DNA of 64,000 nt from Acidobacteriota bacterium (GCA_965217775.1 CBDCJH010000002.1:2784001-2848000); one strand, 5' to 3'; shown: positions 26,222 to 60,152, numbered from the stretch's first letter. The notes: generated from the letters alone by a model not told the origin. Program-made: numbers and translations.

Positions 26222-26342
26222 GGTGAGAACCTCCCGAAAAGAGGCTCTACCAAGTTAAGAACTATGTTGCCAATCCTCGTACGAACCTGTTTGTTCTCAA
26301 TATGTTGGATGCGTTCCGCAACATAACCGGGTCCGCAACATA

Positions 26343-26376
26343 CTACCTCTTATGTTGTTGACAACATAAGAGGTAG
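26343..26376. repeat. 34-bp palindrome abutting the RIT end
   Basis: CTACCTCTTATGTTGT-TG-ACAACATAAGAGGTAG (perfect 16-bp arms, 2-nt spacer). Confidence 0.9.
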
Positions 26377-27073
26377 CAGTAACGCTTGTAGTACCCGTGG
26401 AAGAATCGACCCTCCTGCTTGCCGTGCAACGGATCGTCCGTGGCGTCCACGTCCAGGATCACCTCCTTCGGAGGCTCCGCATGCGCCTCCACGAACACGT
26501 CCAGCAGCAGCGCGTCCATCGCGGCCGGATCCTCCACGATTTTCCGGTACCGTCCCTGCGGACCCTTGCTCGGAGTCCGCTCCAGCCGGTGCAGCGTGCT
26601 CTTGCCTGCCAGCGGCTTCCCTCGGTCCGACTCCCGGCGCCGGAACTCTCCCGTCAGGTCGTCCCGGTCACACAGCAACGCCAGCAGCCGGTCCCGGCAC
26701 AACTCGTCGTGGTCGTTGAGATCCTCGTAGCCCAGACACAGTCCGTACACTCGCTGCTTGACCAGCGCCTCGACCGAATGCTCGATCCGATCGGGATCCC
26801 GACGGTCGGTGAAGCACTCGCTCAGACGACCCAGGATCCGGGTCCGGTGCTCCACCTCTCGCAAGAGGACGCCACCGGCGTCGGAGGTGATCTCGCCGCC
26901 GTCGAACCGGCCCACGACGTCTCTTCCGTCCAAGCCCTGAAAAAGCAACTTAGTTCTGGTACAATCTGCGTTCATAAGGTCGCGTTCCTTCTGCTCTGTA
27001 AGTTATTGATGTCACAACACTTATAGCAGAAAACGCGGCCTTTATCAATCTTTCTGGTGAGAAATCCGGGCTA

Positions 27074-37908: not shown

Positions 37909-37925
37909 GCTGTATTGGCTTTGGT

Positions 37926-40900: not shown

Positions 40901-41498
40901 AATTGGTGCCGGTCAGTGCCCGATAGGCATCGTGAAAGACCCCAAGCCTGCCCTTGCCTTCGAGATAACGCTCCATGTGGGCGATATGCGGGTGATCGCC
41001 ACTGTAGCCTGCTAACTCGTTCAGTACTTTGAGGAACACCGCCAGGATGGCATCGCGCCCGGCCCGATTGTCCGCCTTGCTGTCGATATTGAATAAAATG
41101 ACATCGGTATGGGATGCGACCGCGCGCTTGATGTCTCCGAGCAGCATCGCGTCCTTGATTTTTAGATTGAAGAACTCGACGGCCTGCCGGGTTTGACCAC
41201 CATGTGTATGTTTCTTGTTATTGAGCAGGTAGGACAGCACTTTGATGAAGTGGGATTTGCCGGATCCAAAAAAACCCGAAACCCAGACCCCGATCTTCCC
41301 CGCAACATCCGGGTCCCCGGTCCTCTCCATCGCTTCGCAGTAGCTGGAGAAAAAGCGCCGAAGATGTTGGTCCAGTTCCTTCGTGACAACGAACTCCTCC
41401 AGCTCCTGCCAGACCGATGATTCGTCCAGCTGGTCGGCTTTTACGACGCCATTGATGGGCCGGGAGATGTCCTTCTGAAATAGATTCTCAATACGCAT
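37926..41498 (-). CDS. brxC: BREX P-loop ATPase BrxC
   Basis: RPINGVVKADQ, GVWVSGFFGSGKSHF, FLVDEVGQ and YPFAPYQF. Confidence 0.93.
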   Translation of the reverse strand: MRIENLFQKDISRPINGVVKADQLDESSVWQELEEFVVTKELDQHLRRFFSSYCEAMERTGDPDVAGKIGVWVSGFFGSGKSHFIKVLSYLLNNKKHTHGGQTRQAVEFFNLKIKDAMLLGDIKRAVASHTDVILFNIDSKADNRAGRDAILAVFLKVLNELAGYSGDHPHIAHMERYLEGKGRLGVFHDAYRALTGTNWTDERDAYAFNRDEVIKALVPSLRQSEKSCEKWMDGAEGNFALTIENFCQWVQDYLDGRGEDHRIIFLVDEVGQFIGTDTHLMLNLQTITEELGTVCKGRAWVVVTSQEDIDAVLGEMPGTRANDFSKIQGRFRTRLSLSSANVDEVIQERLLAKREGVRHQLESEYATQGDILKNQLSFKDAGMTFPQFRNADDFVRDYPFAPYQFKLLQKIFESIRKAGATGLHLAQGERSLLDAFQHAGQSVSHMEVGILVPLYRFYPSIESFLDTTVKRTIDQAKDNASLEDYDTRLLEVLFLIRYVDEVKGNVDNLVTLCLDQIDADRLALRKTIEASLQRLERETLVNRSGDTYFFLTSEERDINREIKNVELGSAEEAKLVGELVFEDVLKGLRKHRFSANKMDFSFNRVCDAHPVGNRTEGALAVSIVTPMADDYEVYQADGKCVLESSREDGQVLIRLRNDENLARELRALLRTDKYIRTKDDGTLPATTKRIHRDLADENRKRRDHLIRLLGEMLADASYFVAGQPLEVSASAPQKALSEAMEYLIQNTFNKMSYLKTLCDDPKKEIQAVLRTNDIGQSNLNMDMLESNPQATEDLRSYIDLCKKTNRQVVLAMITKRYAMRPYGWPEFEVILLLARLLMAGEVQCVSGGAAIPKDKLYEALTSKRQWRNITIVQRATTRPEDVQKARELGRDVFSEMGPGREDALFEFLKGRLEGWRERLSQYRALADTGSYPGSAEIADSLSLLKMLVAPNDSSRFLVQVNKHEAHLRELADSFHDLDHFYKHQRPMWDKLRTASGRFKLNQMELERDDSAGPALRRMSEILSAPNPYGLLKEAEGLIGTVNEVNEGLLYERRDRALAKITDQSASVNAEVSTAGGDKSLKNTCLTPLDELAKQVSIHESLAHIGQAEAEAVRLKDEALDQVERYLARKAEEEMAVPDKPVVKARRVVSPGKLVKSSYLESQADVSAFLDDLRKELTDALARNERIEIR

Positions 41499-41511
41499 TG
41501 TTGTTCTCGCG

Positions 41512-42120
41512 TTAATCAATCAGTCTAAAGGCCCGATAGTAGTTGGTTTCCTTCTTGCCTTCCCCGGCGGAACCACCGGTCAGGCCGGTCTTGTCAAAGA
41601 GCCGTAATGTCTGCGTGTCATATCTGCCGGGATAAAACATAACCAGGGGCGTCTGTCCCATGATGGCGTGCAGGTTGCTGAGCAAGGTATGCGATCGGAG
41701 TAATGGATAAACACTGCCGATCCCGGATATCAACACGAGGTCATGCTCCCCCGGCTTTACGGTGTCAGCAAAACGCCGGGCGATCTTTTCCTCATGCAGG
41801 ACGCCCTTTAATGCCTTTAAAAGCGCGTCGTTGCCCTTCTCGCGCTGCATCCTGAACGACTTCTCCAACAGGTTGCGCTCCTTAAGGTAATGGATCAGGA
41901 CGTCAAAGAGGTTGACGTGGGCCACTCGAAGGTTGGGCCTGTTCTTCGGCAGGTGTTCCAGAAGGAACCGGATGTGTTTTCGGATGCGCAGCTCATCCTC
42001 TGGCGCATAATCGAAGATGTAAAAGGCTATCTCATTACCAATGCCACGGGTGCTGAGGAAATCGTCCGATGTGAGCTTCGGAAGAATCTGGTTGAGCCGA
42101 TGGGTCAGTGGGTCACTCAT
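41512..42120 (-). CDS. brxB: BREX protein BrxB (DUF1788)
   Basis: 202 aa; GIGNEIAFYIFDY, VYPLLRSHTLL, MFYPGRY and NYYRAF. Confidence 0.92.
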   Translation of the reverse strand: MSDPLTHRLNQILPKLTSDDFLSTRGIGNEIAFYIFDYAPEDELRIRKHIRFLLEHLPKNRPNLRVAHVNLFDVLIHYLKERNLLEKSFRMQREKGNDALLKALKGVLHEEKIARRFADTVKPGEHDLVLISGIGSVYPLLRSHTLLSNLHAIMGQTPLVMFYPGRYDTQTLRLFDKTGLTGGSAGEGKKETNYYRAFRLID

Positions 42121-42740
42121 GGTCGAACTTCGATGCAGCGGAGCACGTACCTTTCGTCCTGCTCGTGCAGGTAATTCAGCACTTCCCTGGCGACATGGAC
42201 CGTTTGCAGCTTGAGGGTGCGTGTGTTCTCGATGTAGCCGGCCTGCGCGAGGATCAAAAAGACAGTCGAACGCAAGCGCGCTACTGTCGATTCAGTCCAG
42301 TCCGGCATCCCCGGGTCACGGTTACGACAATCCTCGATGAAATGCTCCCAAATGTGCTTGGAGAGGGATGGACGGAACAGCCGGTACTGCTCACGCACCA
42401 CTATATCCAGAAAGTCGCCGAGCAGAAGACTATGTTTCACGGCAGCGGCGAGGCAGGCGTGCGTTGCAAGCGGGACCGAACCATCACGGACCATTTCCCA
42501 AAGCGCGGGCTGCATTAATTCGAGGCGAGCACGGAGGAGTTGGCCCCACCGCGTAGCGGTCTCCCGACTCTGGATCTGGAGAATGTTTTTCTCCACCAGT
42601 TCAGTGCGCCAGTCGTGGCCGTTAACACCCCGTAACAATAGGTCTGCGATGATTCGGCTCTCGGTGACTTTCAGGGAACTCGCCGCGATGGTTGATCGAT
42701 AGCGTACGGATTCGTGTGAGTTCCTGTTCGTGCGTCGAAT
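42117..42740 (-). CDS. brxA: BREX protein BrxA (DUF1819); probable non-canonical ATT start
   Basis: Frame is open from ATT at 42740 after GAGGAG: ..YRSTIAASSLKVTESRIIADLLL..EKNILQ..WTESTVARLRS..LAQAGYI. First gene of the operon. Confidence 0.8.
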   Translation of the reverse strand: MRRTNRNSHESVRYRSTIAASSLKVTESRIIADLLLRGVNGHDWRTELVEKNILQIQSRETATRWGQLLRARLELMQPALWEMVRDGSVPLATHACLAAAVKHSLLLGDFLDIVVREQYRLFRPSLSKHIWEHFIEDCRNRDPGMPDWTESTVARLRSTVFLILAQAGYIENTRTLKLQTVHVAREVLNYLHEQDERYVLRCIEVRP

Positions 42741-43300: not shown

Positions 43301-43503
43301 ACCAGACAGGTGATCGCCGCCTTTGTCGAACGCTACAATCGTGGCCAGCTTCTGGAGCGCCATGAGTATCAGACCACAGTCCAAGGAGCGCCAAGAACTC
43401 ACCCGAAAGAGGGCATGATTAAGGTACACTATTGTTCAAAAATATCGAGACCGTTTCAGTCATGCGGATCCAATTGCCGCGTGCCAGAGAGGGAATAAGC
43501 ACA

Positions 43504-44331
43504 ATGAAGGTCGGCAAACAATCGATATCTGCGCTGGGTTCAGTGATCACGGGGAATACCAATCTGTCGCCATATCGATCTGGCCCAGATCTAGTAGCCT
43601 TCTTCAACCAGTTCTGTGATGTTCAAGATAAGTACGGCAAGGGCTTTCCTTCTCGGTGGGTGTATGCTGAGGAGAAGCTTCAGGAACTCAACGACTCGCG
43701 GCAGTTCACCGATGCACTATTGGCTGCGGTCGATCCGCGTCACTTCTTGGACACGGATTTGGATTGTGAGGCAGTAGTAGAGCGCCTCAATCGGTTCCTA
43801 GAGTACGACGGTTACGCGATTCGTCGACGGGGTCTGCGTTGGGAGGTCATAGCGGTTGCTGGCGACACTGTGGAGGTCCTCAATCCGTTTGACGGCTCCG
43901 GCGATCTGACTCACGAGTTCATCGCCCAACAACTGGATAAGTCAAAGGAGCGGTTGGAAAGAGGTGATTACGACGGTGCCATCACTAGCGCGCGCTCGCT
44001 GCTTGAAGCGGTGTTGTCTGCGCTCGAACGAAAATACGATCCGAAGCGACCGGACTATGACGGGAACTTGGTGAGACTCTATCGACGAGTGCAACAGCAT
44101 CTGAACCTAACACCCGGTCAGGAGGGCCTTGCCGGCTGTCTACGACAGATTCTTTCGGGATTGGCAAGTGTGGTTCACGGTCTCTCAACGCTCAGAAACA
44201 GAATGAGCGACTCCCACGCTGTTACCTATCGGGCCGAAAAACACCACGCGCGTCTTGCAGTCAACTGCGCGCGAACGATGGCTCAGTTTCTGTTCGACAC
44301 GAGTGAATACCAGCAAGAAAGGGAAAGATAA
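43504..44331 (+). CDS. Abortive-infection family protein (AbiJ-like N-terminus + Abi_C/HEPN-like domain)
   Basis: YRSGPDLVAFFNQF..GFPSRWVY; GDYDGAITSARSLLEAV; LSTLRNRMSDSH (RNxxxxxH); HHARLAVN. Confidence 0.8.
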   Translation: MKVGKQSISALGSVITGNTNLSPYRSGPDLVAFFNQFCDVQDKYGKGFPSRWVYAEEKLQELNDSRQFTDALLAAVDPRHFLDTDLDCEAVVERLNRFLEYDGYAIRRRGLRWEVIAVAGDTVEVLNPFDGSGDLTHEFIAQQLDKSKERLERGDYDGAITSARSLLEAVLSALERKYDPKRPDYDGNLVRLYRRVQQHLNLTPGQEGLAGCLRQILSGLASVVHGLSTLRNRMSDSHAVTYRAEKHHARLAVNCARTMAQFLFDTSEYQQERER

Positions 44332-44391
44332 CAGGTCACTGCCTACCAAGAAGCCGCGCTAGACGTTAGTCTTGCCTGCCTTGATCTCTAA

Positions 44392-44750
44392 CCCGGATCT
44401 TTCGGCAGAATGGGTGATAAAGTCCGCGTTCTCGTCTGGAAGAGCCTTGAATCTATGACTCAAAGAGTAGAAGGAACGCGACCTTATGAACACAGAGTAT
44501 ACAAGAACAAAGCTCAAATTTAAGGGCCTGACCGGACGGGTATCGTGGGTTGATTCGACGGCAGTGAGATCACCTTCGATGCCGGTGTCGTCCTCGTCCA
44601 CGAAGTGGACTATCGGGCTCGGCTTCCGTGCCGACTGAGCCAGTGCTTCACCAACCATCGCGATCCGGATCGAATCGAGCATTCCGTCGAGGGGATGATC
44701 ATGCAGCGGATCCTAGTCTGTGCCTGGGAGACGAGGATCTCAACTGCGAT
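44392..44750 (+). mobile_element. Degenerate IS1380 remnant
   Basis: CTAA|CCCGGATCT end, then a decayed ATGAACACAGAG.. / FDGSEITFDAG.. / RDPDRIEHSVE. Confidence 0.65.
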
Positions 44751-45029
44751 GCGCTAGTTGTAGTTGGCGATCCAGTTTAGGTTGAGGGTGGTCGAGGTCA
44801 TGCGACGGTGATAGGTGGGTATGCTCAGACCGTCCAGTCCGGACCGTTGACGTGCCAATATCAAGAGAGGGGGTTGTCCGCGGCGTTGAAGAGACCAGTC
44901 GCGGCGAGCAGGACCTCTGACCTGATCCTGCATCCCCATTGCGGCAATCTTTTTTCGCCGTTTCGGGCCATTCTGGCGAACCATTGGGCCTAGGGGTCGA
45001 GATTATCCTCTGTTATGGTGTGATGCCCT

Positions 45030-45434
45030 TCAGTGCTCATCACCTCCGGTGAGCACATACTCGTAACGATCCCCCTCGGTAGCCAGAAGCTTCAGGTAGA
45101 TCTCAAGCTCCACCGGGTCCAAGTGATCGGCCGGATGACGTATTTCGGCCACCAGCCGGCCTACTCTGTCGAACATGAAGTTCACCAATTCGGTCTCGGC
45201 ATTGCGGATCCACGCCCGGATAGCTAAGCGCCGTCTTTGCGTGCGGTTGCGATTAGCGGAGGGGGGTGCGAAAACGACGGTCGAGAACACATATTGATTG
45301 TCTTCGCGGACAACGTGGATTCGCTGCCGCCGCCCGCGAGTCGATAGGCCCACCAAGATTTCATCGCCCTCAACCACCCACTCAACTCCCTTCTTCAAGT
45401 CCAGCCGCTTCAGCAATTGACGAAGCTCACGCAT
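45030..45434 (-). CDS. Small hypothetical protein, YbjN/type-III-chaperone-like fold (inferred)
   Basis: 134 aa; GRRQRIHV..YVFSTVV..RN..GRLVAE..GDRYEYVLTGGD. Overlaps the helicase stop by 8 nt. Confidence 0.6.
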   Translation of the reverse strand: MRELRQLLKRLDLKKGVEWVVEGDEILVGLSTRGRRQRIHVVREDNQYVFSTVVFAPPSANRNRTQRRRLAIRAWIRNAETELVNFMFDRVGRLVAEIRHPADHLDPVELEIYLKLLATEGDRYEYVLTGGDEH

Positions 45435-48400
45435 AATCGGAACTCTGTTCCCGCCGGGTCGGTTCTGCGTCGACGCCCAAGAGTTCCTCCTCCAGCCGGT
45501 CAGCCTGTTGCGCCGTGCGGCTAACCAACTCCTTGAACTCTTCGTACTGCGTACTTTCGGGGTCGAAAGGCAAGCTGGCCTCCACGCTGAGCGCGTGTTT
45601 CCGGTGTCGGGTTTCGAATCGGGCGCAAAGGCGCGGGTGGCCGAGTTCGGACTGTAGCCGCTGCAAGAAGTCCACGTTCGCAGGCTGTGTCAAGTCGATC
45701 AAGCCGATCTCGCTGGAACACTGAAGGAAGGTCGCACCATCAATTCCGGCCGAACGCAACTCGACACGGACGAGCTGCCTTCTACTTTCCCCGCGGCCAC
45801 TGCGATCCGAGGAATTCGCAGTTGTGGCGCCATCGCCTCCCTCTCGTGACACCTGCAAGACCCCTTCACGATGCAGTAACCGCTCTCGACCCGATTGTTC
45901 GATACATAAGTCCTGCACCAAGCGGTCCCAGTGGTCCTTCAACAGCGTTGCGAGTGCGCGGACATCAACCCGATGTAAACGGCTTCCGCCGACCGATCCC
46001 TCCAGCCATTCATCCTTAACGGGGAATGCCGACTCCAATCGGCCCTCAACGGGCGGAGGCAACTCGATCGACGCCAGAATCTCCTGGTTCTTATCGATTC
46101 GACGACTATGTGCCCGCCGTTTTGCCGACTCGTGTACGAGTCTCATAAATCTATCGAGCCGCTGCAGAACCCGCCGGACTTGCAGACGCTCCACAGTATC
46201 TTCGAGATGAGGGTAGTGGACTTGAATCTTCTCTTCGGGATCGGGTGCGCTATCCCTGCCATCGAGGCGGCGTTGGAGCAAGCTGCCGATCCGGTCCACC
46301 CTTCCTGTACGCTGCTCCATGGCAGAAGGGGTCCACGTGATGCCGTAGTGGACAACCTTGCGGCAGAACGTATGCAGATCTTCACCCTCCTGCAGCACAT
46401 CGGTACTGACGAGGACCAGAGGGAAACCCGGCATACGAAACTGTTGCACGGTGCGACCCGAAACCCTTCCCGACATGCGACCAACGGGATCCTGGTGTTG
46501 TAGGCCGCGACCGAAGATCTCGGCTACTGTCGACAGTTTGCCGTCCGGCACATTGGGAAAGTTGACCCCGATCAGGGTATCGAACGCCTCTGCCGCGCCC
46601 CTCAATTCGGAGAACGCGTGAAAGCCGGAATGTTCGCGCTGTTTGGCGAGCAGAGCCACGAATCGCTGGGCCAGGCTGCGGCTAGCACGACCGCCAGCCG
46701 GAGCAGGCTTTAGCTCGAATGAGCCGACCTCCTCAATGGCAAGCATATAGAGGTCTATGTACGCCGCGCCAAGCCGTGACATAGCGCTGAGAAGTTCGCG
46801 TCGCTGTTCCCGACGTCGGAAACGCTCGGCGAAGGTCCCTGCTTCTTCATCTGGCCACAGTTCTCTTCGAAGTTCAGGATGACGCACGAGCTCCGTAAAG
46901 AATGTGGTAGTGCCGATCGAGGACTCCGGCTGCGGAAACCCCCTTGGAGGATCAATGCGCTCTCCGTGAAAGTCGGGAAACCGACGTTTTAGCACCTCGC
47001 TTACCTGGCTGGCCCTATCTCCGCCCGCCTGCGCCAGGAGATGGAGGGCAGCCGATTGATACGCCTCGAAGACGTAGTAGCGTGGGTATCCCTCCGCCTG
47101 TTTCGTGCGATGCAGGAAATATGCCCAAGCGAATTTACGCAGGCGCGTTCGTAGTTCTCCTGGCGAAAACCTGAGAAGATCCGCCAAGCGTTTCAACGGT
47201 TCATCCGGCCGACCGAGCAGCCAGGAAACAAGGTCGTCCTCAAAGAGGGTGCTGTACACGGCTGCAGTAGCACTCAGGCGGTTCCTCTGGAAGGCTGCCC
47301 CCGACAGGACACCCTTGGGCCCCGCCCCTCGAAAGAACCAGCAGAAGAAATTCTCGCGGCCACCCGGGTCGTCGTCAGCGCCGTATAGAGGCGTATCACT
47401 CTCCGTTCCCGTTACTATGGGGTTGGCAAGACCGGATGTCGCCTCTGTGACCCCAGTGTCACCCTTTGTCTCGCTTGCAAAGCGCCGGAACAGCTCGTCG
47501 ATCTGGTTTCGAAGCTCTGGAAGCGCTTCTTCCATTCTTCGCCGAATCCAGCTGTCGAACTCCCAATCGAGGCGATGGGCTAACTCGTCCACCGTCGCAA
47601 CGCGCCGGACGAAGACAAGGGCCTTTTCTCCAGTCTTGAATGCGGAAGCCAGCGATCGGACCGCCGCGTCGAGCTTAGGGTGCGGCAGTCCCCTCTGAAA
47701 TCGTTGCCGATACGATTCGACGAGGGCGCTGAGTACCCGCGTGTCGGCACCACGCCGTTCCTCTTCGTTCCGGGTCTGTCGTCCATCGAAAGCGGCTTGG
47801 TCCTCTTCTCCTTCGGTCCGCTCTCGGTCGGTCTCCTCAGCCGCCAACTGCCTTTTCCGGACGCGGCTGACAGTTTCGAGGAAGCTCTCGAAAGAGGAAA
47901 GCATGCCGATCTGGAAATGATTCCCGAATCGCTCGTCGCCCAGCACTTCGGCCACCTTCTTCTGGACCAGACCGACGATGAGCCGTTGGCGCTGATCTTC
48001 GAACCGGATAGGTTTGTCGAACCGCCGGAATCCGCCGTAACGCCATTCCCGACGGTACATATTCTTGGTGTACTTCTCGTCCCCGATCTCCAGATAGGTC
48101 ACCCGCCGGATCAGCAGATTGGACGCAATCTCCCGTTTCGAGCTCTCCTTAAGATCGCCATTGGCCAGGCCGCTCACCAAGAACACCCGCCTCTTCCCAG
48201 CATCGCCCACTTGGACCTTGCCCACACCGAGCACGTCGAGTTGGCGCCAAATATCCCCGTAGTCATCTTCGAACGGAGTGGCCGAGAGGCAAAGGACGTG
48301 CTTGACCCGCGGTCGGTACCATGAGCAGTTGCGGACAACTCCGGAAGGATGTCCCAACGTGAGTCCCAGGATGCGATTGCGATTCGAGACGTGCCTTTCG

Positions 48401-49080
48401 CCCTGCGAGCCGAAGCCCTTCTTGAGGTTGTGGGCCTCGTCGACCACTAAGATGTCGATGTCCGGAACGAGCGCGTTAAGGGCACGCCCGTACTGCTCCC
48501 GGAACTCGTGCTCGGTAGTTGATGACAGGGCCGACCTGGGTAGCCAGGAAAGGTGTTTCCGGAGCTCCGCGCGGTATTTTTTCCGCGCCTCCGGTTGCCT
48601 CAGCGCCAAACTGAAACTCGTCATCCGAAGAAAGAAGTCGCGACCGTCATTGATCGTCAGCTCGCGCGCGAACGAGGCTAACGAGTGACACACCGTTGGT
48701 CGGTTTGCCGGGGTGCCCTGGACCGACTTCACCCGGTTGTCGGTTACGCGCCAATTGTTCCGTACGAAATTGCCCAGTTCCTTCACCCATTTGCGTTGGA
48801 TATTCTCTCGCGGGGCGACGACGAGCATTCGCGCGTCGGGGCGAAAATGGCGTACCAAACCCATTACCCCGAGAGCGACGTAGGTCTTGCCCATGCCGAC
48901 CTCGTCGGCGATGTAGGCGACGCGGTTTTCGGCAAGCATGTTGTGGGCGGCGACAGTTCCTTCCAGCTGCGACTTGGCAAACGCGGGGTCGATGAGGTGG
49001 CGACGGTGTCCGTTCCTGCCGTTAGACGAACCGCTGAAGTCGATGAGTTCGCGCGCGAAATCGACACCTATCCGTTTCAT
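45427..49080 (-). CDS. SF2/SNF2-like helicase with a C-terminal chaperone-like domain
   Basis: 1217 aa; YIADEVGMGKT, LVVDEAHN, LSATP, STDVLQEGEDL and EQRTGRVDR. Confidence 0.88.
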   Translation of the reverse strand: MKRIGVDFARELIDFSGSSNGRNGHRRHLIDPAFAKSQLEGTVAAHNMLAENRVAYIADEVGMGKTYVALGVMGLVRHFRPDARMLVVAPRENIQRKWVKELGNFVRNNWRVTDNRVKSVQGTPANRPTVCHSLASFARELTINDGRDFFLRMTSFSLALRQPEARKKYRAELRKHLSWLPRSALSSTTEHEFREQYGRALNALVPDIDILVVDEAHNLKKGFGSQGERHVSNRNRILGLTLGHPSGVVRNCSWYRPRVKHVLCLSATPFEDDYGDIWRQLDVLGVGKVQVGDAGKRRVFLVSGLANGDLKESSKREIASNLLIRRVTYLEIGDEKYTKNMYRREWRYGGFRRFDKPIRFEDQRQRLIVGLVQKKVAEVLGDERFGNHFQIGMLSSFESFLETVSRVRKRQLAAEETDRERTEGEEDQAAFDGRQTRNEEERRGADTRVLSALVESYRQRFQRGLPHPKLDAAVRSLASAFKTGEKALVFVRRVATVDELAHRLDWEFDSWIRRRMEEALPELRNQIDELFRRFASETKGDTGVTEATSGLANPIVTGTESDTPLYGADDDPGGRENFFCWFFRGAGPKGVLSGAAFQRNRLSATAAVYSTLFEDDLVSWLLGRPDEPLKRLADLLRFSPGELRTRLRKFAWAYFLHRTKQAEGYPRYYVFEAYQSAALHLLAQAGGDRASQVSEVLKRRFPDFHGERIDPPRGFPQPESSIGTTTFFTELVRHPELRRELWPDEEAGTFAERFRRREQRRELLSAMSRLGAAYIDLYMLAIEEVGSFELKPAPAGGRASRSLAQRFVALLAKQREHSGFHAFSELRGAAEAFDTLIGVNFPNVPDGKLSTVAEIFGRGLQHQDPVGRMSGRVSGRTVQQFRMPGFPLVLVSTDVLQEGEDLHTFCRKVVHYGITWTPSAMEQRTGRVDRIGSLLQRRLDGRDSAPDPEEKIQVHYPHLEDTVERLQVRRVLQRLDRFMRLVHESAKRRAHSRRIDKNQEILASIELPPPVEGRLESAFPVKDEWLEGSVGGSRLHRVDVRALATLLKDHWDRLVQDLCIEQSGRERLLHREGVLQVSREGGDGATTANSSDRSGRGESRRQLVRVELRSAGIDGATFLQCSSEIGLIDLTQPANVDFLQRLQSELGHPRLCARFETRHRKHALSVEASLPFDPESTQYEEFKELVSRTAQQADRLEEELLGVDAEPTRREQSSDYA

Positions 49081-51146
49081 GGAGTTCCGTCACCCTTCGC
49101 TTCCAACTTCGCCGCGTCAGTCACAAACATCTCCTCGAACCACGTCAGGAACTCCTCGCGATCCGGATCCGCCAGTTTGAGCTCCGATCGAATGTTCTCG
49201 ACCTCGCTAAGAAGGCATTCCAGCTTGCGGCCATCGTCGCGGTGCGCCGCCCAGTAGTTGGGCCATTCACGCTTTACCCGGACGGCAACCTGCTTAGCGT
49301 TAAGCAAGGTCACGTAGGCAACAACGGCATCCCGGGTTGTTCGCTCCAGTATTTTCCGCAAAAGCACAGGCAAAGAATCGTACTTCTCCCCGAAGAGACG
49401 GGCGGTGACCTCCGTTTCTCTCTGCTCGTCGAGCCTCTTGTTGATCCAGCGGCGGAGCCGTTCGAATGCGTGGAATACGCCTGCGAAACGGTCGAATACG
49501 GTCTCGACCCTCCCCACGGGTGACGTTGCCGGAGAAGGGCGAAGTCCTAGCAGGGCTTCGTCGGTTTCCAGACGATCGGCGAGGAACGCTTGCCTCTGCG
49601 ACTCAGAGAGGAGTGACCAGTACTGGAGAATCTCCTCTGGCGTCAACTGAGTCAGCAGGGACGGCTTGTGGGACATTCCTTCCTCCCGGATGAGGATGCG
49701 CCATTCGCACTTACCGCCAGTCGTCTGCGTCCGCGCAACCACGAAGCTGCTGGATTCCAAAAGCTCCTTCACCGAGTCGGCCGCCTCAGAACCGCAGTTC
49801 TCCCATTCGCCCGGCAGAGGCCGGTGAATGATGCACACATGCCCACCCGCGATCGATTGAAGGTGCACTTCTTCATTGTGGTTGGCGTCTGCCCGATACT
49901 CGAACGTGTGACGTGCCCAATCGTACCTCAGGGAGAGAGCCAGCCCGACCCTCTCGGAATTTCGGTCTTCGCTTGTCAACTGTTCCGCAAATTGTTCGGG
50001 AGGATCGTCTAGTGGCTCAAGCCACCAATCAGCGCGGTCGCTGCCGTCAGTGGTGTTGACCAGAAACGCGGCTTCAAGATTCCCCGCACTTGCCAGACTA
50101 TGCGCCGCCTGTGTCAGGTTCACAGATCCGACTAGCACCACGTCGCCCTCCCCACGACGCCAAAACCGGTAGACCTTGGCGTGAACCCGCCGGGCGGCGG
50201 TCCCCTCCGAGGACGATCGGTTCCCGGAACGTGTGACGGATGCGGGGAGGCGACTCCACTTGGCATTCGAGCCCACCGCTTCGTACTGCTCGGACGTTAC
50301 GGTAGGCGTTCCGTCGGCATCGGTCGGCAAGAATACACGCACCTCGCGGGGTCGCGTTGCTCGAACTAAGTTCTTGAGCGCTCCCGCACCGTGCGCGTCG
50401 AAGAAGGGAGAGACGATTTCGAGATTCCAATTGCGTTGGGAAATCCGGAGGCCTGCAAGCCAATCGGAAAGGGATGCCTGTCCCGTGAATAACCGCGTGT
50501 AGTAGCGTCCTCGCCAGCTTGCGTTTCGAGTGCTCAACCGCGGAGTGTCGTTTTGCACGAAGCGGCGAACCGTTTCAATGGCCCCGCCTTGGTCCTCTGT
50601 GCGGGCAGCGCTGGCTACAGCGCGGAGCGCGTCGAGCAGATCCTGGCGGAAGGTGCATCGTATATTGGTAGCCGACACCGTGTTGATTACCTCAACGTGT
50701 CCCGCCTCTACGCTTTCCCACCACCCAGCCCGCGTGAGGTTCGCCGAGAGCGTCGCCGCTATCAGACTCTGTGTCGGCGCGCTGCCCTCACTCGCTGGGT
50801 TCTCCACCAGCACCAGGACGAGCTTGGTATGGAAGATCCCGGTTCGGCCAACATCTACGCGGCGGAAATCGAGCCTCGCGGAGCGAGCGTTGTCCACGAG
50901 ACCGCTTCGATCGTAGTACACCGCAACATCGGACATCTCGCGTAAGCACTCTTCGAGCTGAACGAGCCGAACTTTTTCGACATGGCTGAATCCGCCCCTG
51001 AATCGACCCTCGAACAGAATTGGCAGAATCTCCAACTCGAAGAACTCGGGGTCGAATGTGTAGGTCGTGAAAACAGCCGCTGTGACCCGCCGTCCGGCAA
51101 TTGCTTTCGATATCTCGTCCGAAAGGACTCGTTTGGGAGCATTCAT
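49077..51146 (-). CDS. Phospholipase D-family (double HxK) putative nuclease
   Basis: 689 aa; FTTYTFD, GIFHTKLVLV..SANLTRAGW, IVSPFFD and RVHAKVY..GSVNLT. Confidence 0.82.
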   Translation of the reverse strand: MNAPKRVLSDEISKAIAGRRVTAAVFTTYTFDPEFFELEILPILFEGRFRGGFSHVEKVRLVQLEECLREMSDVAVYYDRSGLVDNARSARLDFRRVDVGRTGIFHTKLVLVLVENPASEGSAPTQSLIAATLSANLTRAGWWESVEAGHVEVINTVSATNIRCTFRQDLLDALRAVASAARTEDQGGAIETVRRFVQNDTPRLSTRNASWRGRYYTRLFTGQASLSDWLAGLRISQRNWNLEIVSPFFDAHGAGALKNLVRATRPREVRVFLPTDADGTPTVTSEQYEAVGSNAKWSRLPASVTRSGNRSSSEGTAARRVHAKVYRFWRRGEGDVVLVGSVNLTQAAHSLASAGNLEAAFLVNTTDGSDRADWWLEPLDDPPEQFAEQLTSEDRNSERVGLALSLRYDWARHTFEYRADANHNEEVHLQSIAGGHVCIIHRPLPGEWENCGSEAADSVKELLESSSFVVARTQTTGGKCEWRILIREEGMSHKPSLLTQLTPEEILQYWSLLSESQRQAFLADRLETDEALLGLRPSPATSPVGRVETVFDRFAGVFHAFERLRRWINKRLDEQRETEVTARLFGEKYDSLPVLLRKILERTTRDAVVAYVTLLNAKQVAVRVKREWPNYWAAHRDDGRKLECLLSEVENIRSELKLADPDREEFLTWFEEMFVTDAAKLEAKGDGTP

Positions 51147-52450
51147 GAGGCGTGCCGAGGTGCAGCGGTGGCAGTCTGGGCCACCAACGCCTTAAGTGAA
51201 TCGATGAAGTACGAGTTACGCCATAGCGATGACATGCCTTCCGCCGCAGGGAGTTCCCGTTCGATGCCTCGGTACCGGACATCAAGTGCGCCACGGTCAT
51301 CCAGCCGCACCCACGGGGCAGCCCTTCGTCCAGTCATCACTAGCCTATTCCATTCCAGCAGCCCCTCTATCGCCACCTGGTAATTTCCGTGCGAGAGACC
51401 ACCATGCGTCTCCGCCATGCGCGCGGTTACTTCCGTGCCCACCAAGCTGGCTATTTCGTCTCGGATCTCGGCGAACTCGGCGGCGTCGAGATGAGGGATC
51501 CGCTCGCCCCAGCGCTCACGTAACGATTCTGCAATTCTGGCGGGGACCTGGCCATGCCGAGTTTGCAGGAATCCGAAGATTGCATCACAGGGCGCCAGTA
51601 GCGTCTCGAGGGCGAGAATTCGGCCGATCCGTCGCGCCAATTCAGCGTCGATCCTACGAGCGGATCGCATGATTGATACAAGCTCCGCTCGGTTGATGCT
51701 ATTCCGTAGCGAAGTGCGTTTTTCAAGCAGACGCCAGAGGGTTGCCTGTCGGCCCGACTTCATGTGATCGCAGTATTGTGCGTCGCACAGATAGGCTCGG
51801 TAGAACTTCCGTTCTGCTGCGGACAGTTCGCCACCGAGGATGCCGCGGAGCGCGGACACAATTGGGTCGGGTGGCTTTACTGCCAGTGTTCCCCCGCTCA
51901 TAACAAGGGTCTCAAGTCGTTTAAGCACCGGAGACAGACGCGGCATATATTGGCCCTCAATAAAATCACGCGCCTTGCAAGTAACGCCGACCGGCCCTTC
52001 GCGCAGAAGCTTCGAGACTCTGGCGGATACCGAAAACAGACCCCAAAGGCCGTAGGTCTTCTGGTCCGATAGAATCGTCGCGTCTGGCGTAGTCCCGATC
52101 TTTACCGTGGATCCACCTTCGGAGATGCGCCTTCTAACACGCTCGATTCCGAGAATGCGTCCCTCTGACCCGGCATCATCTCCGAGAGCGAGACAACGCA
52201 CATATCCGCACACCTGCTCAGTTCGGAGAAATACGTCAACGACATCTTCTTCGGAGATCTTGCCCTCTCTGAGCAACCGCTCACCCAAGTAGCGGCCGAG
52301 AAGGAGGACGGTGAACCCACGGAGCGAATCGGTCACCGTGGTGAGATTAGCGACGATGTGCCTTCCGAAAGCTGACCAGATGGGCTGAACGCCGAGTGGG
52401 TCGCGGGAACCCTTAACGCGGGCACGAGGATCTTCGAGGGTCAGGAACAC
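51143..52450 (-). CDS. Hypothetical protein, first gene of the PLD-helicase operon
   Basis: 435 aa, GTG start; GSRDPLGVQPIW..NLTTVT..RG and YGLWGLF..S; ATGA overlap with the PLD gene. Confidence 0.75.
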   Translation of the reverse strand: MFLTLEDPRARVKGSRDPLGVQPIWSAFGRHIVANLTTVTDSLRGFTVLLLGRYLGERLLREGKISEEDVVDVFLRTEQVCGYVRCLALGDDAGSEGRILGIERVRRRISEGGSTVKIGTTPDATILSDQKTYGLWGLFSVSARVSKLLREGPVGVTCKARDFIEGQYMPRLSPVLKRLETLVMSGGTLAVKPPDPIVSALRGILGGELSAAERKFYRAYLCDAQYCDHMKSGRQATLWRLLEKRTSLRNSINRAELVSIMRSARRIDAELARRIGRILALETLLAPCDAIFGFLQTRHGQVPARIAESLRERWGERIPHLDAAEFAEIRDEIASLVGTEVTARMAETHGGLSHGNYQVAIEGLLEWNRLVMTGRRAAPWVRLDDRGALDVRYRGIERELPAAEGMSSLWRNSYFIDSLKALVAQTATAAPRHAS

Positions 52451-52491
52451 GGTAGAAAACGTTAGGCTACCGGTGCGAGCATCACCACCGG

Positions 52492-53409
52492 TCAGCTCGC
52501 ATCATAGCTCTTCTGGAGTAGGGGTTTCGCACGTTCCAGGTCGTCCGATGTCTGAATCCTCACTTCAAGGTCCCCCGTTCCGAAGTGTCCTATATCTCGG
52601 ACATCGCGCGTGAAGTTCGGTGTCAGCATGACCGTGTCGGGGTCCACTTTCAGGTACACAAGGACAGTCGACTTATTAGGACGCACCTCGACGCACGCAA
52701 AGTTCCGTAGCTTCTTGAAAGCGACGTAGTACTTGAGTTTCTTCTCCTGAATATCATCACCGAGCGCCAGTACGTGGTCCCGAAGTGCTTCATAGAGGTC
52801 CAGAAGGGGCCCATCGAGGGAACTCAGGACTTCCGAAATCGTCTTATAGGTCGTGGTAGTCGGCTTCGTCCCTTTTCTTCCGGTAGGAGAATCGCTCGTA
52901 GCAGAGATAGCGTTGACCATCTCAAGCATCAGAAGTGTCTTTCCAAATCGCCGGTAGCGGATCAGCTCAATGTTACGATTCATCTGTTCCACAGCGTGTT
53001 CATCGTAACGCGTGAACGCGCCAGCGATACACAGCAACCGGGGGGCAGACCAGTCGATGGCATCAGCAGTGGCCGCCCCCAGCTTCCGCAGAACCAGGAG
53101 TTCGAATTCCGCACGGTGATCAAGGAGCCAATCCATATAGTAGAGACCTTGGTTGATGACGTTCTGGTTAGTGGCTCGCTTATATTCGATGATTACCGGG
53201 CAGTTGTTCTCGTCGATGCCCAGCGTATCGATTCGCCCCTTTTGCTTCGGGCCGGTGGAATACTCGCTTCCGAGTAGGCGGATCCCTAGCATCACGTCCA
53301 GGTTCCGCTCCATGAGGTCGTGAAGTGACTTCTCAACAGCTGCGGCTTCTCCAGGAATCTCTGTCGCGGACTGCTGAGTCAAGTCGAACAGTTTGATATC
53401 GGTGGTCAC
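52492..53409 (-). CDS. NucS-like endonuclease + DUF5655 domain protein
   Basis: 305 aa; GRIDTLGIDENNCPVIIEYKR..NQGLYYMDWL; C-terminal KYYVAFKK..RDVRDIGHFGTGDLEVRI. Confidence 0.82.
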   Translation of the reverse strand: MTTDIKLFDLTQQSATEIPGEAAAVEKSLHDLMERNLDVMLGIRLLGSEYSTGPKQKGRIDTLGIDENNCPVIIEYKRATNQNVINQGLYYMDWLLDHRAEFELLVLRKLGAATADAIDWSAPRLLCIAGAFTRYDEHAVEQMNRNIELIRYRRFGKTLLMLEMVNAISATSDSPTGRKGTKPTTTTYKTISEVLSSLDGPLLDLYEALRDHVLALGDDIQEKKLKYYVAFKKLRNFACVEVRPNKSTVLVYLKVDPDTVMLTPNFTRDVRDIGHFGTGDLEVRIQTSDDLERAKPLLQKSYDAS

Positions 53410-53450
53410 ATCGATTCTCCCGAGTCAATGATAGTTGGACCCCCCGTCAC

Positions 53451-53588
53451 TCACGACGCTTTCGGGTAACTGATCTCCAAAAAGATCTGGGGGACCACAA
53501 CAGGGTCCTGGTCGGGCTGGATGACGTTCTTAACGCGGCCGAAGGCCTGCTCCAGGAACTCGGCCGGATCCGCATTGGGCAGACCGAT
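53451..53588 (-). pseudogene. Third, isolated copy of the 3' end of the GHL lipoprotein gene
   Basis: IGLPNADPAEFLEQAFGRVKNVIQPDQDPVVVPQIFLEISYPKAS*, matching the ends at ~8895-9030 and ~54063-54200. Confidence 0.8.
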
Positions 53589-53766
53589 GGTACCGTATGC
53601 TCTGGTCCGTGGTTACGATGACCTTGGACCCTTCCTCCTCGGCCTTGCGGATCAACTCTCCGTTTTCCAGCAATTCCCACCCCTTCTCCGCCGATCTGTC
53701 CACTGAATGTTCCCGGAGATGGTTTCGAAGGGGCGCCGGCGTTCCATGGTCGAACAGGATCTTCAT
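53588..53766 (-). pseudogene. Truncated DUF5615/PIN toxin
   Basis: MKILFDHGTPAPLR..AEKGWELLENGELI..VTTDQSIRYH, then fused to the GHL fragment. Confidence 0.7.
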
Positions 53767-53768
53767 GG

Positions 53769-53987
53769 TCAGGCCGGCGTTTTGAAGAATTCCACTTCAT
53801 GCTTGAGAACAGCCGCCACTTGCCACTGCTTTACCTCCGGGTACCACTCCAGGAACTGCTTCACGGTGGCGCCGCCCTCCAGGTTTTCGAACAGGGCGTA
53901 TACCGGCACTCTTGTCCCGGTGAAGGCCCAGGCTCCGCTGATCTTGTGGGGATTGCGTTCCACTGCAGAACAGGCCTCCCAGTTCAT
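53769..53987 (-). CDS. DUF433 antitoxin-like protein
   Basis: 72 aa; SGAWAFTGTRVPVYALFENLEGGATVKQFLEWYP. Confidence 0.8.
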   Translation of the reverse strand: MNWEACSAVERNPHKISGAWAFTGTRVPVYALFENLEGGATVKQFLEWYPEVKQWQVAAVLKHEVEFFKTPA

Positions 53988-54062
53988 TGTCGGTTCACCT
54001 CCTTTCCATTTGGGATGCTCGTGTTCCGGCTGTCCATTGTTGCTCCTGTTGACGACGAGTGA

Positions 54063-55730
54063 CTACTTCCCAGGATAGCTGATCTCCAAAAAAATCTGGT
54101 GGACCACGACCGGGTCCTGGCCGGGCTTGATGACGTTCTTGACTCGGCCGAAAGCCTGCTTCAGGAACTCGGCAGGATCGGCATTGGGGGGACCGATCAG
54201 ACCCGCGAAGGGGCCGGCGGCGGGGATGTTCGAGATCAGGCCCACCTCGTTCATCCCGTTCCTCGCCACACCCGCGGGAACCTGAAAGTGGAACCAGTCC
54301 CCTTCCCTTTCTGCCTCGGGCAGCAGCGTGTGATTCAGACGAGCCCAGAGAATGGTCCCCTTTCCGGCCTTGGCCGTGTACACGCTCAAACGCAGGCTGG
54401 CCTTCTGGTCTTCCGCGGCGGGTCCCAGATGCAGCCGCAACTTCCGCTCGACCCGGTCCAGCACGATCGGCAGAAGCGCCGGATCAGAGCCGTGGTAGAA
54501 GGGTCCTCCGCTATGCGCCGTCGGGTTGATGGCGTAGACCTTGTCCTTCCCGGCCATCGTCTCCGGCTCCCCCAACTCGCTCAGCACCCCCTCGAACTCC
54601 TCGTCGGTCAGCCGTTGCGTCGGTTCATGCCTGAAATTGAACAGGTAGATGCCGTCGGCGCCCTGGTCCAGGTAGTAGTCGGCATACGCCCGCATTCCCT
54701 CGCGAAACAGAGGCTTACTCCGCAGAGTCTCCCAGGCGCCCGCCCGCATGGTGTTGGGATTGATGGACGGATAGACCTGCACCCCCGTCTCCCCGGCCAG
54801 GCGCAACCAATGCCCGATGGCCAACTGGTCGGGCATGTATCCCAGGCCCACCAGCAGCACGTCCACCAGATCCTCCCGCGCCCAGGTCTCCACGTCCAGA
54901 CCGATCTCCAGGTTGGTCTCCAGGGAATCCATCACGTGGACCGCCAGGGTGTAGGGTCGCCCCCGCTCGTCTCCGATGGCGTTCAGCCGCTCCCGGATCT
55001 GCCGCATCAGGTCCGTCATCAGGTGGGCCTTTTGCCGTCCCTGTCCCATGGGGAAGTGGATCCCCATGCGGTTGAAATCCAATTCGTAGCCGTCGAAGTC
55101 GTGTCTGGCAGCGGTCTTCGCGATGTAGTCGAGACGATGCTGCCGAACCTCCGGGTGGGTGTAGTCGAGCGACACCCAGAGACGCTGCTCCGTCAGCTCG
55201 GAAGGGAGCTGGCGGTCCGTCATCGGCGCCATCAGGTACTCGGGGTGTTGCGTCTTGAAGACGTCGTCCAATTCCTCCAGGGTCCGGGACCGGAAGGCCG
55301 CGTGAAGATCGCTCATGCGCACCGACCCCCAGACCTCCAACCCCTGTTCATGGCAGGCCCGGATGACGACGTCGTTCACCTGCTCGTAGGAATCGAAACA
55401 GTCCCAGAGCAGATCCGTTGGAATATTCCACGGCGGCTCGGCCCCGTTTCCGATGTGCCACAGGTAGGTGTCCACCTGGGTGCCCTTGACCATGCGCACG
55501 CTGGCGTCCAGGAAATCTTCGTGGGTCCGGATGTCGTAGATGAGGCTCATGTACGGCTCCACCTTCCCCCGGTCCAGGTAGCTGTGCGACTGGACGGCGG
55601 CGGAGTCGTAGTAGAGGATCCGCCGCTCCTTCTTCGATTCGCCTTTCGAAGCGACGTCCGGGGTCTCGGAAGGGCTGCCGCAGGAGAGGACGCCCCACAG
55701 GAGCGCCAGGAGGAAACCGTGTCTCTTCAT
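54063..55730 (-). CDS. Putative lipoprotein, GHL10/DUF187-like glycoside hydrolase (copy 2)
   Basis: Lipobox GVLSC; same motifs as copy 1; operonic with the upstream gene. Confidence 0.72.
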   Translation of the reverse strand: MKRHGFLLALLWGVLSCGSPSETPDVASKGESKKERRILYYDSAAVQSHSYLDRGKVEPYMSLIYDIRTHEDFLDASVRMVKGTQVDTYLWHIGNGAEPPWNIPTDLLWDCFDSYEQVNDVVIRACHEQGLEVWGSVRMSDLHAAFRSRTLEELDDVFKTQHPEYLMAPMTDRQLPSELTEQRLWVSLDYTHPEVRQHRLDYIAKTAARHDFDGYELDFNRMGIHFPMGQGRQKAHLMTDLMRQIRERLNAIGDERGRPYTLAVHVMDSLETNLEIGLDVETWAREDLVDVLLVGLGYMPDQLAIGHWLRLAGETGVQVYPSINPNTMRAGAWETLRSKPLFREGMRAYADYYLDQGADGIYLFNFRHEPTQRLTDEEFEGVLSELGEPETMAGKDKVYAINPTAHSGGPFYHGSDPALLPIVLDRVERKLRLHLGPAAEDQKASLRLSVYTAKAGKGTILWARLNHTLLPEAEREGDWFHFQVPAGVARNGMNEVGLISNIPAAGPFAGLIGPPNADPAEFLKQAFGRVKNVIKPGQDPVVVHQIFLEISYPGK

Positions 55731-57341: not shown

Positions 57342-58427
57342 CTACAAGGCCTCGGCCACCAGGTCTCCGACCTCGCTCGTGGTGTAGCCCATCCGGCCGG
57401 CGGACATGCTCTTCATCTTGGGAGTGGTCCGGCCGATGGCGGTGTCCACCCTCGTTCCGGCGCGAACCAGGTTGGGAAGGTCCTTCTGGTCTCCCAGTAC
57501 ACTCAACAACATGCCCATGGCTCCGATGGCGGCGATGGGATTGATGACGTTCCGGCCCGTGTATTTGGGCGCGGAACCTCCCATGCATTCGAACATGCTG
57601 CAGCCGCCCGGCTCCGGGTTGATGTTGCCTCCGGAGGCCACGCCCAGACCCCCCTGAATCATGGCGCCCAGGTCGGTGATGATGTCCCCGAACATGTTGG
57701 GGACCACGATGGTGTCGTAGTACTCGGGGTTCTTGACGAACCACATGCAGGCGGCGTCGATGTGGTTGTAGTCGCGGTTGACCTGGGGGAATTCGGCTTC
57801 ACCCATGGCGTGGAAGGCCCGCTCCCACAGGTCGGCGGCGTAGGTCAGGACGTTGGTCTTTTGGACCAGGGTCAGGCGGAGGCGGTCCTGCCGGCTGATG
57901 CAGTGCTGAAAGGCCCAGCGCAGGCAGCGGTCGATGCCGAACCGGGTGGCGATCATTTCCTGCGTGGCCACCTCTTGGGGGGTGTTCTTGCGCAGGAATC
58001 CGCCGGCGCCGCAGTAGAGGTCTTCGGTGTTCTCACGGACGACATCGAAGCGGATGTGCTCGGGTCCCTTGTCTTTTAGGGGGCAATCCACGCCGGGGTA
58101 GAGGCGGACGGGACGGAAGTTGATGTACTGGTCGAGTTGGAAGCGGATGGAGAGGAGGAGGCCCTTTTCCAGCAGGCCGGGGGTGACGCCCGGGTGTCCG
58201 ATGGCGCCGAGGTAGATGGCGTCGAACTGTCCGAGCTCGTCAATCTGAGCTTCCGTGATCATCTCGCCGGTGGTCAGGTAGCGGTCGCCGCCGTAGTCGA
58301 AGTCGGTTCGGTCGTAGCTGACATCCTCCAGAGGGGCGACGGCTTCCAGGACTTTGAGAGCTTCGTTGGTGACTTCGGGGCCGGTTCCGTCGCCGGGGAT
58401 CACCGCGAGCTTTAATGTGTCGGTCAT
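57342..58427 (-). CDS. leuB: 3-isopropylmalate dehydrogenase
   Basis: 361 aa; AVIPGDGTGPEV, VVRENTEDLY, NMFGDIITD and GGSAPKYTG..INPIAAI. Confidence 0.88.
   Translation of the reverse strand: MTDTLKLAVIPGDGTGPEVTNEALKVLEAVAPLEDVSYDRTDFDYGGDRYLTTGEMITEAQIDELGQFDAIYLGAIGHPGVTPGLLEKGLLLSIRFQLDQYINFRPVRLYPGVDCPLKDKGPEHIRFDVVRENTEDLYCGAGGFLRKNTPQEVATQEMIATRFGIDRCLRWAFQHCISRQDRLRLTLVQKTNVLTYAADLWERAFHAMGEAEFPQVNRDYNHIDAACMWFVKNPEYYDTIVVPNMFGDIITDLGAMIQGGLGVASGGNINPEPGGCSMFECMGGSAPKYTGRNVINPIAAIGAMGMLLSVLGDQKDLPNLVRAGTRVDTAIGRTTPKMKSMSAGRMGYTTSEVGDLVAEAL

Positions 58428-60075: not shown

Positions 60076-60152
<77 letters not shown>

Follow-up and report, generated by a model that had tools for sequence, protein, structure and literature searches.

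A chaperone-fold fourth gene is a constant part of an Azaca-like nuclease-helicase operon family

Introduction

Why should a predicted nuclease-helicase operon end in a small gene whose product has the fold of a type III secretion system (T3SS) chaperone? The question is raised by four minus-strand genes at positions 45030-52450 of a 64,000-nucleotide (nt) stretch of DNA from an Acidobacteriota bacterium (GCA_965217775.1 CBDCJH010000002.1:2784001-2848000), the whole of which was analyzed and is called the window here. In reading order these are gene 1 (51143..52450, 435 amino acids (aa), GTG start), an all-alpha protein in the position that ZacA holds in the Azaca system, with a match to the PADLOC model PDC-M27A; gene 2 (49077..51146, 689 aa), a member of the phospholipase D (PLD) superfamily with two HxK motifs and a predicted nuclease; gene 3 (45427..49080, 1217 aa), an SF2 (superfamily 2)/SNF2-like DExH helicase that carries both a long insertion and a C-terminal domain; and gene 4 (45030..45434, 134 aa), with a YbjN/T3SS class I chaperone fold. 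A preliminary description, made from the sequence alone, had proposed a candidate new or variant defense system in which the last gene was an extra module. We find instead that gene 4 is a constant part of its family, whether it stands alone or is joined to the C-terminus of the helicase, and we think it fairly probable that the four genes are one conserved unit, a four-component member of an Azaca-like nuclease-helicase family that PADLOC lists as the candidate PDC-M27.

A conserved block of exactly four genes

All four open reading frames (ORFs) are uninterrupted, in the ORF listing as well as in their translations. Read directly, the junctions are ...ctcATGAat between genes 1 and 2 and ...tccATGAaa between genes 2 and 3, each with an overlap of 4 nt, and ...ttATGcgTGAgc between genes 3 and 4, where the overlap is the 8 nt ATGCGTGA; at every junction the stop codon overlaps the start of the following gene. 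The intact ORFs and the ATGA or 8-nt overlaps of the preliminary description are thus borne out. Promoter and terminator scans of positions 44000-54200 were uninformative, with 0 promoter-like sites against 2.6 expected and 11 terminator-like sites against 8.7 expected.

The arrangement is not a chance one, because collinear homologues of each of the four proteins, at 57-70% identity, occur in a Gemmatimonadota genome and in a Bryobacterales genome, both listed as other phyla. The four genes are also collinear in 4 genomes of the window's own phylum, where the identity of gene 1 is 34-53%, and the operon is patchy there, being present in 6 of 401 genomes. Five flanking genes of the window have no match in any of the 108 loci that were fetched, and the conserved block is therefore exactly four genes.

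Linkage of gene 4 to the helicase

Whether gene 4 belongs to this block in general was judged in 80 metagenome loci fetched with gene 1 as the query, a choice of loci that was blind to gene 4. The sequence stops before the helicase in 33 of these and cuts the helicase in another 17, and 30 were flagged as judgeable. Gene 4 is a separate gene directly after the helicase in 24 of the 30 and is fused in the helicase frame in 5; the remaining flagged locus (L086) extends only ~51 nt beyond the helicase and cannot be judged. Gene 4 accordingly accompanies the helicase in 29 of 29 judgeable loci, or about 21 distinct ones after near-copies are collapsed (L017-19, L030/31, L042/44, L047/49, L060/61 and L093/95/96, recognized by identical scores and zero-length branches).

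The fusions recur in several sources of data. Helicase and gene 4 form a single frame of 1444 residues in a complete genome (L013), and in a genome of the same genus that carries a three-gene variant (L014) the last ~120 residues of the helicase match the gene 4 hidden Markov model (HMM) at an E-value of 5e-10, with an hhalign probability of 90.5%. Of the 20 listed matches to the gene 4 profile that exceed 160 aa, 16 have the helicase C-terminal domain and then gene 4 within a single chain, and 8 of 10 long matches that were scanned against PADLOC are PDC-M27C helicases. On a FastTree phylogeny of 33 helicase cores, from which the near-identical or frameshifted L018, L019, L020, L028, L060, L061, L083 and L096 and all truncated sequences were omitted, 4 changes are required to explain the fused state, of which well-supported branches demand at least 3, and the sister clade of the window's helicase is fused. 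With gene 4 constant in every judgeable locus and repeatedly joined to the helicase, the idea of an extra module gives way to that of an integral component.

These data also bear on the possibility that the locus is an ordinary three-gene Azaca system followed by an unrelated downstream passenger. The order and sizes of the first three genes are ZacABC-like, and ZacB and ZacC are matched by genes 2 and 3. Gene 1, however, is not recognizable as ZacA/DUF6361 (see below), and gene 4 accompanies the helicase in 29 of 29 judgeable loci and is repeatedly fused to it. Moreover, the gene 4 HMM finds nothing at E<=10 in five loci around DUF6361 genes, four of which are full three-gene ZacABC arrays, and the tails of ZacC are not significantly similar to the window's helicase tail or to gene 4 (E 0.02 and 0.16). 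Contradicted by the synteny and fusion data, the passenger account was rejected and appears very improbable.

A decayed copy of the system was seen in two of the near-identical loci (L060 2721-4054 and L061 10386-11719), in which gene 4 is intact but of the helicase only three short fragments survive, corresponding to residues 1-102, 269-341 and 1106-1204. A PD-T4-6/mad6-type kinase gene lies just upstream of the decayed copy in L061.

Fold and family of gene 4

Gene 4 has 28 close homologues among 62 candidates, and a profile search returned 389 cluster representatives at E<=0.001. The AlphaFold2 model has a predicted local distance difference test (pLDDT) value of 74.7, and its Foldseek comparison with the PDB yielded 29 structures at E<=0.001; every one of those listed is a T3SS chaperone or a member of the YbjN family. 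They include 1xkp_C, from the SycN-YscB entry, at 4.3e-5; 1xkp_C and ExsC give template modeling (TM) scores of 0.65-0.72, with ExsC at 0.72, and SycE, CesT and YbjN (6vu7) are further PDB matches. The model has the beta-sheet meander flanked by helices that characterizes the TY-chaperone fold. In Pfam the window's own protein matches nothing at E<=0.01, CesT alone appearing at E 0.12. Among 88 diverse members of the family, however, 21 match YbjN (best 5.3e-11) and 10 match TY-Chap1, and with these matches and the structural ones the YbjN-like label that the preliminary description had given to gene 4 proves right.

Other searches with gene 4 gave no viral structure at E<=0.001 and no PADLOC model at E<=1, and the family profile matched no PDB sequence at E<0.1. 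A 1055-aa tandem-repeat protein (P0110) with 19 short matches to the profile was discarded as a repeat artefact. Conservation in the family is highest in an acidic motif at the C-terminus, LAxECDRFEYxLTGxD, at residues 117-132 (45039-45086 in the window), where the window's protein has G in place of the consensus C. The helicase tail terminates in a similar motif. Residues 125-134 of gene 4 are modeled with pLDDT below 50, and the acidic motif sits outside the interface predicted below; it may contact another partner.

Predicted pairing of gene 4 with the helicase tail

What might a protein of this fold do beside a helicase? The conserved C-terminal domain of gene 3 (residues 1060-1217; 45430..45903, minus strand) is the predicted docking site of gene 4, and it is probably, to judge by several sequence-based comparisons, a second YbjN/T3SS-chaperone-like domain. 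Its predicted strand and helix pattern resembles that of gene 4; in hhalign the tail and the gene 4 family align at E 0.005, a weak signal in which the last strand and helix are in register; and the gene 4 HMM has a weak match to helicase residues 1175-1205 (independent E-value 0.0047), the two HMMs cross-matching. In the ESM Atlas the ten best named clusters for residues 1040-1217 all belong to the TY-Chap1/YbjN/CesT clan (0.84-0.89), which is a lead only. BLASTP of gene 4 against gene 3 gave no match.

When helicase residues 985-1217 were modeled in complex with gene 4, the scores were 0.82, 0.82 and 0.83, and the best of 3 controls reached 0.00. The score is a measure of model confidence, and its calibration is only approximate, own alignments having been used. 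Of 80 solved complexes, 58 attain the mark applied to it, and of 110 mismatched pairs, 2 do. The partner's pLDDT is 71 or higher, and between runs at least 75% of contacts agree. Because dimers of the chaperone fold are present in the PDB, the pass may partly reflect that likeness. The modeled interface brings helicase residues 1109-1184 together with gene 4 residues 64-116, the central helix and the following strands. The central helix and adjoining strands are also where T3SS chaperones dimerize.

The model thus supports binding of gene 4 to the helicase C-terminal domain. The simplest reading of the complex model, together with the tandem order of tail domain and gene 4 in the fused proteins, is that the two would form a chaperone-like pseudo-dimer, split across two genes in the window. 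Gene 4 shares with the T3SS class I chaperones and YbjN (the TY-chaperone superfamily) its fold and the predicted pairing through the central helix and adjoining strands, and it differs from them in that the partner here is a helicase domain, with no secretion system involved, and in its conserved acidic C-terminal motif. TY-chaperones bind peptides, and one family has two copies per chain, according to the parts of the survey of Iyer et al. (PMC9503650) drawn on here.

The nuclease and the helicase

The two larger proteins carry the motifs that their predicted activities would call for. In gene 2 the first HxK motif is H106-T-K108 (50823..50831, minus strand), with its partner S134-A-N136 at 50739-50747, and the second is H322-A-K324 (50175..50183, minus strand), with its partner G340-S-V-N343 at 50118-50129, which is the arrangement of the PLD (HKD) superfamily, two HxK motifs each with a downstream S/G-x-N. 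H106, K108, S134, A135 and N136 are invariant in 19 aligned sequences, as are H322, K324, G340, S341 and N343, and variation within the motifs is confined to T107, A323 and V342. Translation and alignment therefore agree with the two HxK motifs that had been reported for the second gene, which also matches PLDc_2 above the Pfam cut-off (1.4e-6) and is predicted from its sequence to be a single-chain PLD-family nuclease.

Gene 3 exceeds the Pfam cut-offs for Helicase_C, ResIII and SNF2-rel_dom. Motif I (Walker A) is DEVGMGKT at residues 59-66 (48883..48906), motif II is DEAH at residues 214-217 (48430..48441) and motif VI is QRTGRVDR at residues 923-930 (46291..46314), all on the minus strand, and residues 266-269 read SATP. 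Among 19 helicase relatives D59-G62, G64-T66, D214, E215, H217 and residues 266-269 are invariant, and so are Q923, R924, G926, R927, D929 and R930 of motif VI, the varying positions being 63 (M), 216 (A), 925 (T) and 928 (V). The SF2 motifs I, II (DEAH), III, V and VI noted at the outset for the third gene are accordingly present, at positions that are largely invariant.

Relationship to PDC-M27 and Azaca

The operon is not an unlisted one, in that genes 1-3 match PADLOC PDC-M27 A, B and C in order. Gene 1 matches PDC-M27A (PDLC04552) at 1.1e-21 in 2 stretches, and both ends match in the genome search; gene 2 matches PDC-M27B (PDLC04553) at 3e-12, with residues 23-497 on positions 19-464 of the 635 in the model; and gene 3 matches the PDC-M27C models PDLC04556 and PDLC04554 at 5.1e-76 and 9.2e-73. 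The modest A and B matches mark the window operon as a diverged branch; the three-gene relative L014 outscores it on PDC-M27 B and C. To judge by these raw hmmscan scores, PADLOC would probably flag three of the four genes as a candidate. The operon is therefore no new kind of system, and what is new is the fourth component. The PDCs were defined by embedding in BREX, DISARM or type I restriction-modification systems, according to the sections of Payne et al. consulted (bioRxiv 10.1101/2024.01.29.577857), and the window operon adjoins BREX, the type of context from which they came. The operon differs from PDC-M27 as listed in that its gene 4 is separate and has no PADLOC model; in variants of the L014 type the helicase has a gene 4-like end.

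Azaca is the other point of comparison. Its name and three-gene layout reportedly come from Millman et al. 2022. The preliminary description saw a resemblance to zacABC, and as regards layout and the second and third genes it stands. Gene order and sizes are shared, with a first protein of unknown kind (~400-435 aa), then a PLD protein that has two HKD motifs (~630-690 aa) and then the SF2 helicase (~1070-1220 aa); gene 2 matches ZacB at 3.8e-18, with residues 17-571 on positions 18-556 of the 586 in the PADLOC model, and gene 3 matches ZacC at 1.2e-17. The window helicase has in addition an extra C-terminal domain and gene 4, and the resemblance fails at gene 1, which is not detectably ZacA/DUF6361. 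DUF6361 occurs in 8 and PDC-M27A in 6 of the same 401 genomes. Judged from sequence comparison, the window operon belongs to a sister family of Azaca, the one that PADLOC calls PDC-M27, and lacking a detectable ZacA likeness in gene 1 it is not Azaca in the strict sense.

Azaca gives strong protection against T4, and T4 DNA is preferentially cleaved in vitro; the cutting needs ZacA, ZacB and ZacC together, the PLD site and the Walker A motif of ZacC (bioRxiv 10.1101/2025.07.10.664194, from the portions of that preprint used here). By analogy the window operon probably works in an Azaca-like manner, as a complex- and ATPase-dependent PLD nuclease. Gene 1 is possibly the DNA-recognition part, an all-alpha partner in the ZacA position, for which there is a weak lead. 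One of the comparison loci (L109, 8812-12444, minus strand) has a second helicase-like ORF of 1210 aa on the opposite strand beside a canonical Azaca array, with a Helicase_C motif in common with gene 3.

A reduced DISARM or Mokosh variant is a further alternative that the enzyme content brings to mind. DISARM likewise has a PLD nuclease (DrmC) and an SNF2-like helicase (DrmD) in a defense locus, and weak matches to both models were obtained, that of gene 3 to the PADLOC DrmD model reaching 1.1e-17. The NCBIfam scores, however, fall far under the cut-off (19.9 against 133 for DrmC and 76.4 against 610 for DrmD), and the matches are limited to generic HKD and Helicase_C motifs. Pfam and PADLOC scans of the four proteins found neither DrmA/DrmB (DUF1998) nor a methyltransferase domain, and no Mokosh model in PADLOC matched any of them. 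With the family cut-offs failed, this alternative was set aside as the least probable of those considered.

Genomic context

The surroundings of the operon are those of a defense island. A complete type I BREX operon (brxA, brxB, brxC, pglX, pglZ and brxL) lies at 29674-42638 on the minus strand, with BrxC, PglX, PglZ and BrxL matching PADLOC models nearly end to end and BrxA and BrxB matching Pfam models; a KAP-family P-loop NTPase (27737-29191) lies just downstream of it, and AbiJ (43432-44331, plus strand) stands between BREX and the operon. On the other side is a NucS_C+DUF5655 gene (52492-53409, minus strand) that matches PADLOC PDC-S18 at 1.7e-144 and, lying 41 nt upstream of gene 1 on the same strand, may be co-transcribed with it. 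This gene is not conserved beside the operon in other loci. These matches agree with the flanks as first described, AbiJ/BREX and a NucS-DUF5655 gene. The accompanying picture of an intact operon amid decayed genes finds no support among the nearest neighbors: the six BREX genes, AbiJ and the PDC-S18 gene look full length, and the sole clearly truncated gene seen, in what was not a systematic pseudogene survey, is a transposase at 26343-26975.

That transposase is of the DDE type (210 aa, aligned to positions 4-170 of the model's 435) and forms, with three consecutive overlapping ORFs of 338, 316 and 416 aa, a minus-strand block at 23011-26975, in which the 416-aa third ORF is a tyrosine recombinase (Phage_integrase, 1.5e-25). 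Further DDE transposases lie at 5997-7298 and 15588-16760, and together with the recombinase they mark the region as a mobile island. An isocitrate/isopropylmalate dehydrogenase gene at 57342-58427 suggests that the island ends before ~57 kb. Beyond it, a 1212-aa protein gene (60317-63955, minus strand) matches PADLOC HEAT-ARM_XIII at 5.3e-52 in 7 stretches and is adjoined by a tRNA-Arg(TCG) gene (60076-60152, plus strand). Toward the other end of the window are a second NucS_C gene, with the NucS_C domain only (4336-5421, plus strand), a minus-strand ORF at 17174-19243 that has no Pfam or PADLOC match and whose 689 aa equal the length of gene 2 by coincidence, and a gene for a 471-aa protein with a SIR2_2 domain (1407-2822, minus strand; 6.1e-7), a domain that is common in defense systems.

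Context is also what would speak for the operon not being anti-phage at all and serving instead in DNA repair or recombination, or in contests among mobile elements, plasmid exclusion being one example. Neither PLD nucleases nor SNF2-like helicases are confined to immunity, the island has its transposases and integrase, and the immediate neighbors of the homologues are mostly unannotated: among 10 of these from 5 other loci, 7 have no Pfam family and 1 has a PADLOC match, to a generic methyltransferase. Against a non-defense role stand the position between BREX/AbiJ and PDC-S18 and the patchy distribution of the operon in the phylum (6 of 401 genomes), along with its presence in other phyla. 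The closest named relatives, ZacB and ZacC, moreover come from a system whose defense activity has been shown experimentally (bioRxiv 10.1101/2025.07.10.664194, in the text drawn on here), and some homologous loci adjoin a type I restriction endonuclease, an MkoA-like gene or a kinase system. We regard a non-defense role as quite unlikely.

Several of these observations nevertheless weigh against reading the operon as a four-component Azaca-like defense family, as do the two cautions given with the complex model and the sparse annotation of the immediate neighbors. The context of the homologues is mixed: among 10 hand-picked large neighbors from 8 loci, 4 match defense-type families (an MkoA-like protein, a type I restriction endonuclease, a PLD protein and a PD-T4-6/mad6-type kinase), a fifth is a helicase of the generic UvrD-like kind, and the remaining 5 have no match. 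PDC-M27 is one of 145 untested "guilt-by-embedding" candidates, as stated in the part of the source study used (Payne et al., bioRxiv 10.1101/2024.01.29.577857), and the name was not found in the literature texts searched, a collection that mostly leaves out subscription journals and excludes supplements. The matches of gene 3 to ZacC, DrmD, DpdE and BrxH are best over the generic Helicase_C region, the best stretch with ZacC comprising only the Helicase_C motifs (881-937), and the sequence signals that point to a chaperone fold in the helicase tail are weak ones.

The question of gene 1 belongs here as well. It has no Pfam match at E<=1, and the PADLOC ZacA model has zero matches across the whole genome at E<=10. 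A comparison set of DUF6361 genes, at first five drawn from same-phylum genomes and later 120 more, was aligned with the gene 1 family by hhalign, which gave E 0.2 with 8 against 5 sequences and E 0.015, at a probability of 3%, with 79 against 123; a short N-terminal motif alone aligns, and the ESM Atlas value of 0.85 for gene 1 against ZacA/DUF6361 is a lead only. With no significant homology by Pfam, PADLOC or either hhalign run, gene 1 is not a detectable ZacA/DUF6361 protein, and the Azaca analogy consequently depends on gene order and on the second and third genes.

Possible mechanism and significance

Taking the operon as a four-component, Azaca-like nuclease-helicase system, we infer anti-phage function and DNA degradation from the analogy with Azaca. 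The assembled complex, with gene 3 as its SF2 (DExH, SNF2-like) ATPase or translocase, would locate the DNA of invading phages, possibly modified DNA, by translocation at the expense of ATP, and would degrade it. Gene 4 would dock through its central helix and adjoining strands onto the similar C-terminal domain of the helicase, an arrangement that some relatives have as a tandem within one polypeptide, and the resulting heterodimer would be an assembly or regulatory platform. Its ligand, in this proposal, would be a peptide in extended form, contributed by a partner or by a phage protein, and gene 4 may have the sensor or regulatory role that the preliminary description gave it.

The most specific version of this proposal is that the pair of tail and gene 4 is a chaperone-fold infection sensor. 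In the way that a T3SS chaperone dimer clasps an effector, it would capture an extended segment of a phage protein, or let go of a bound segment of its own nuclease, and so license DNA degradation by the PLD-helicase. This is speculative, with perhaps one chance in five, and would explain why this branch, unlike canonical Azaca, always has the extra module. The same binding with the opposite sign of effect would make gene 4 mainly an inhibitor, an antitoxin-like or immunity subunit that keeps the nuclease-helicase switched off until it is itself removed or titrated upon infection. A small gene, last in the operon and translationally coupled, would suit such a part, as would the predicted binding to the helicase tail and the known ability of the chaperone fold to clasp partner peptides (PMC9503650, in the parts cited above). 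Permanent in-frame fusion to the helicase in several lineages, however, is more in keeping with a fixed subunit than with an inhibitor that can be released, and we hold the inhibitory role to be unlikely.

If gene 4 is, as the linkage data indicate, an integral subunit, the parts list of the candidate family is corrected, and detection models should include the fourth gene, which separates this branch from canonical Azaca. In the literature searched, which again lies mostly outside subscription journals, YbjN was found in an anti-phage or defense setting solely for ADP-ribose systems, and a role here would extend the part that the chaperone fold plays in immunity beyond those systems (PMC9503650, as far as the text used covers them). 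The predicted pairing with the helicase tail offers a concrete handle on how a nuclease-helicase system may be assembled or switched on, and, should the infection-sensor proposal be true, it would amount to a new mode of triggering for nuclease-helicase defense.

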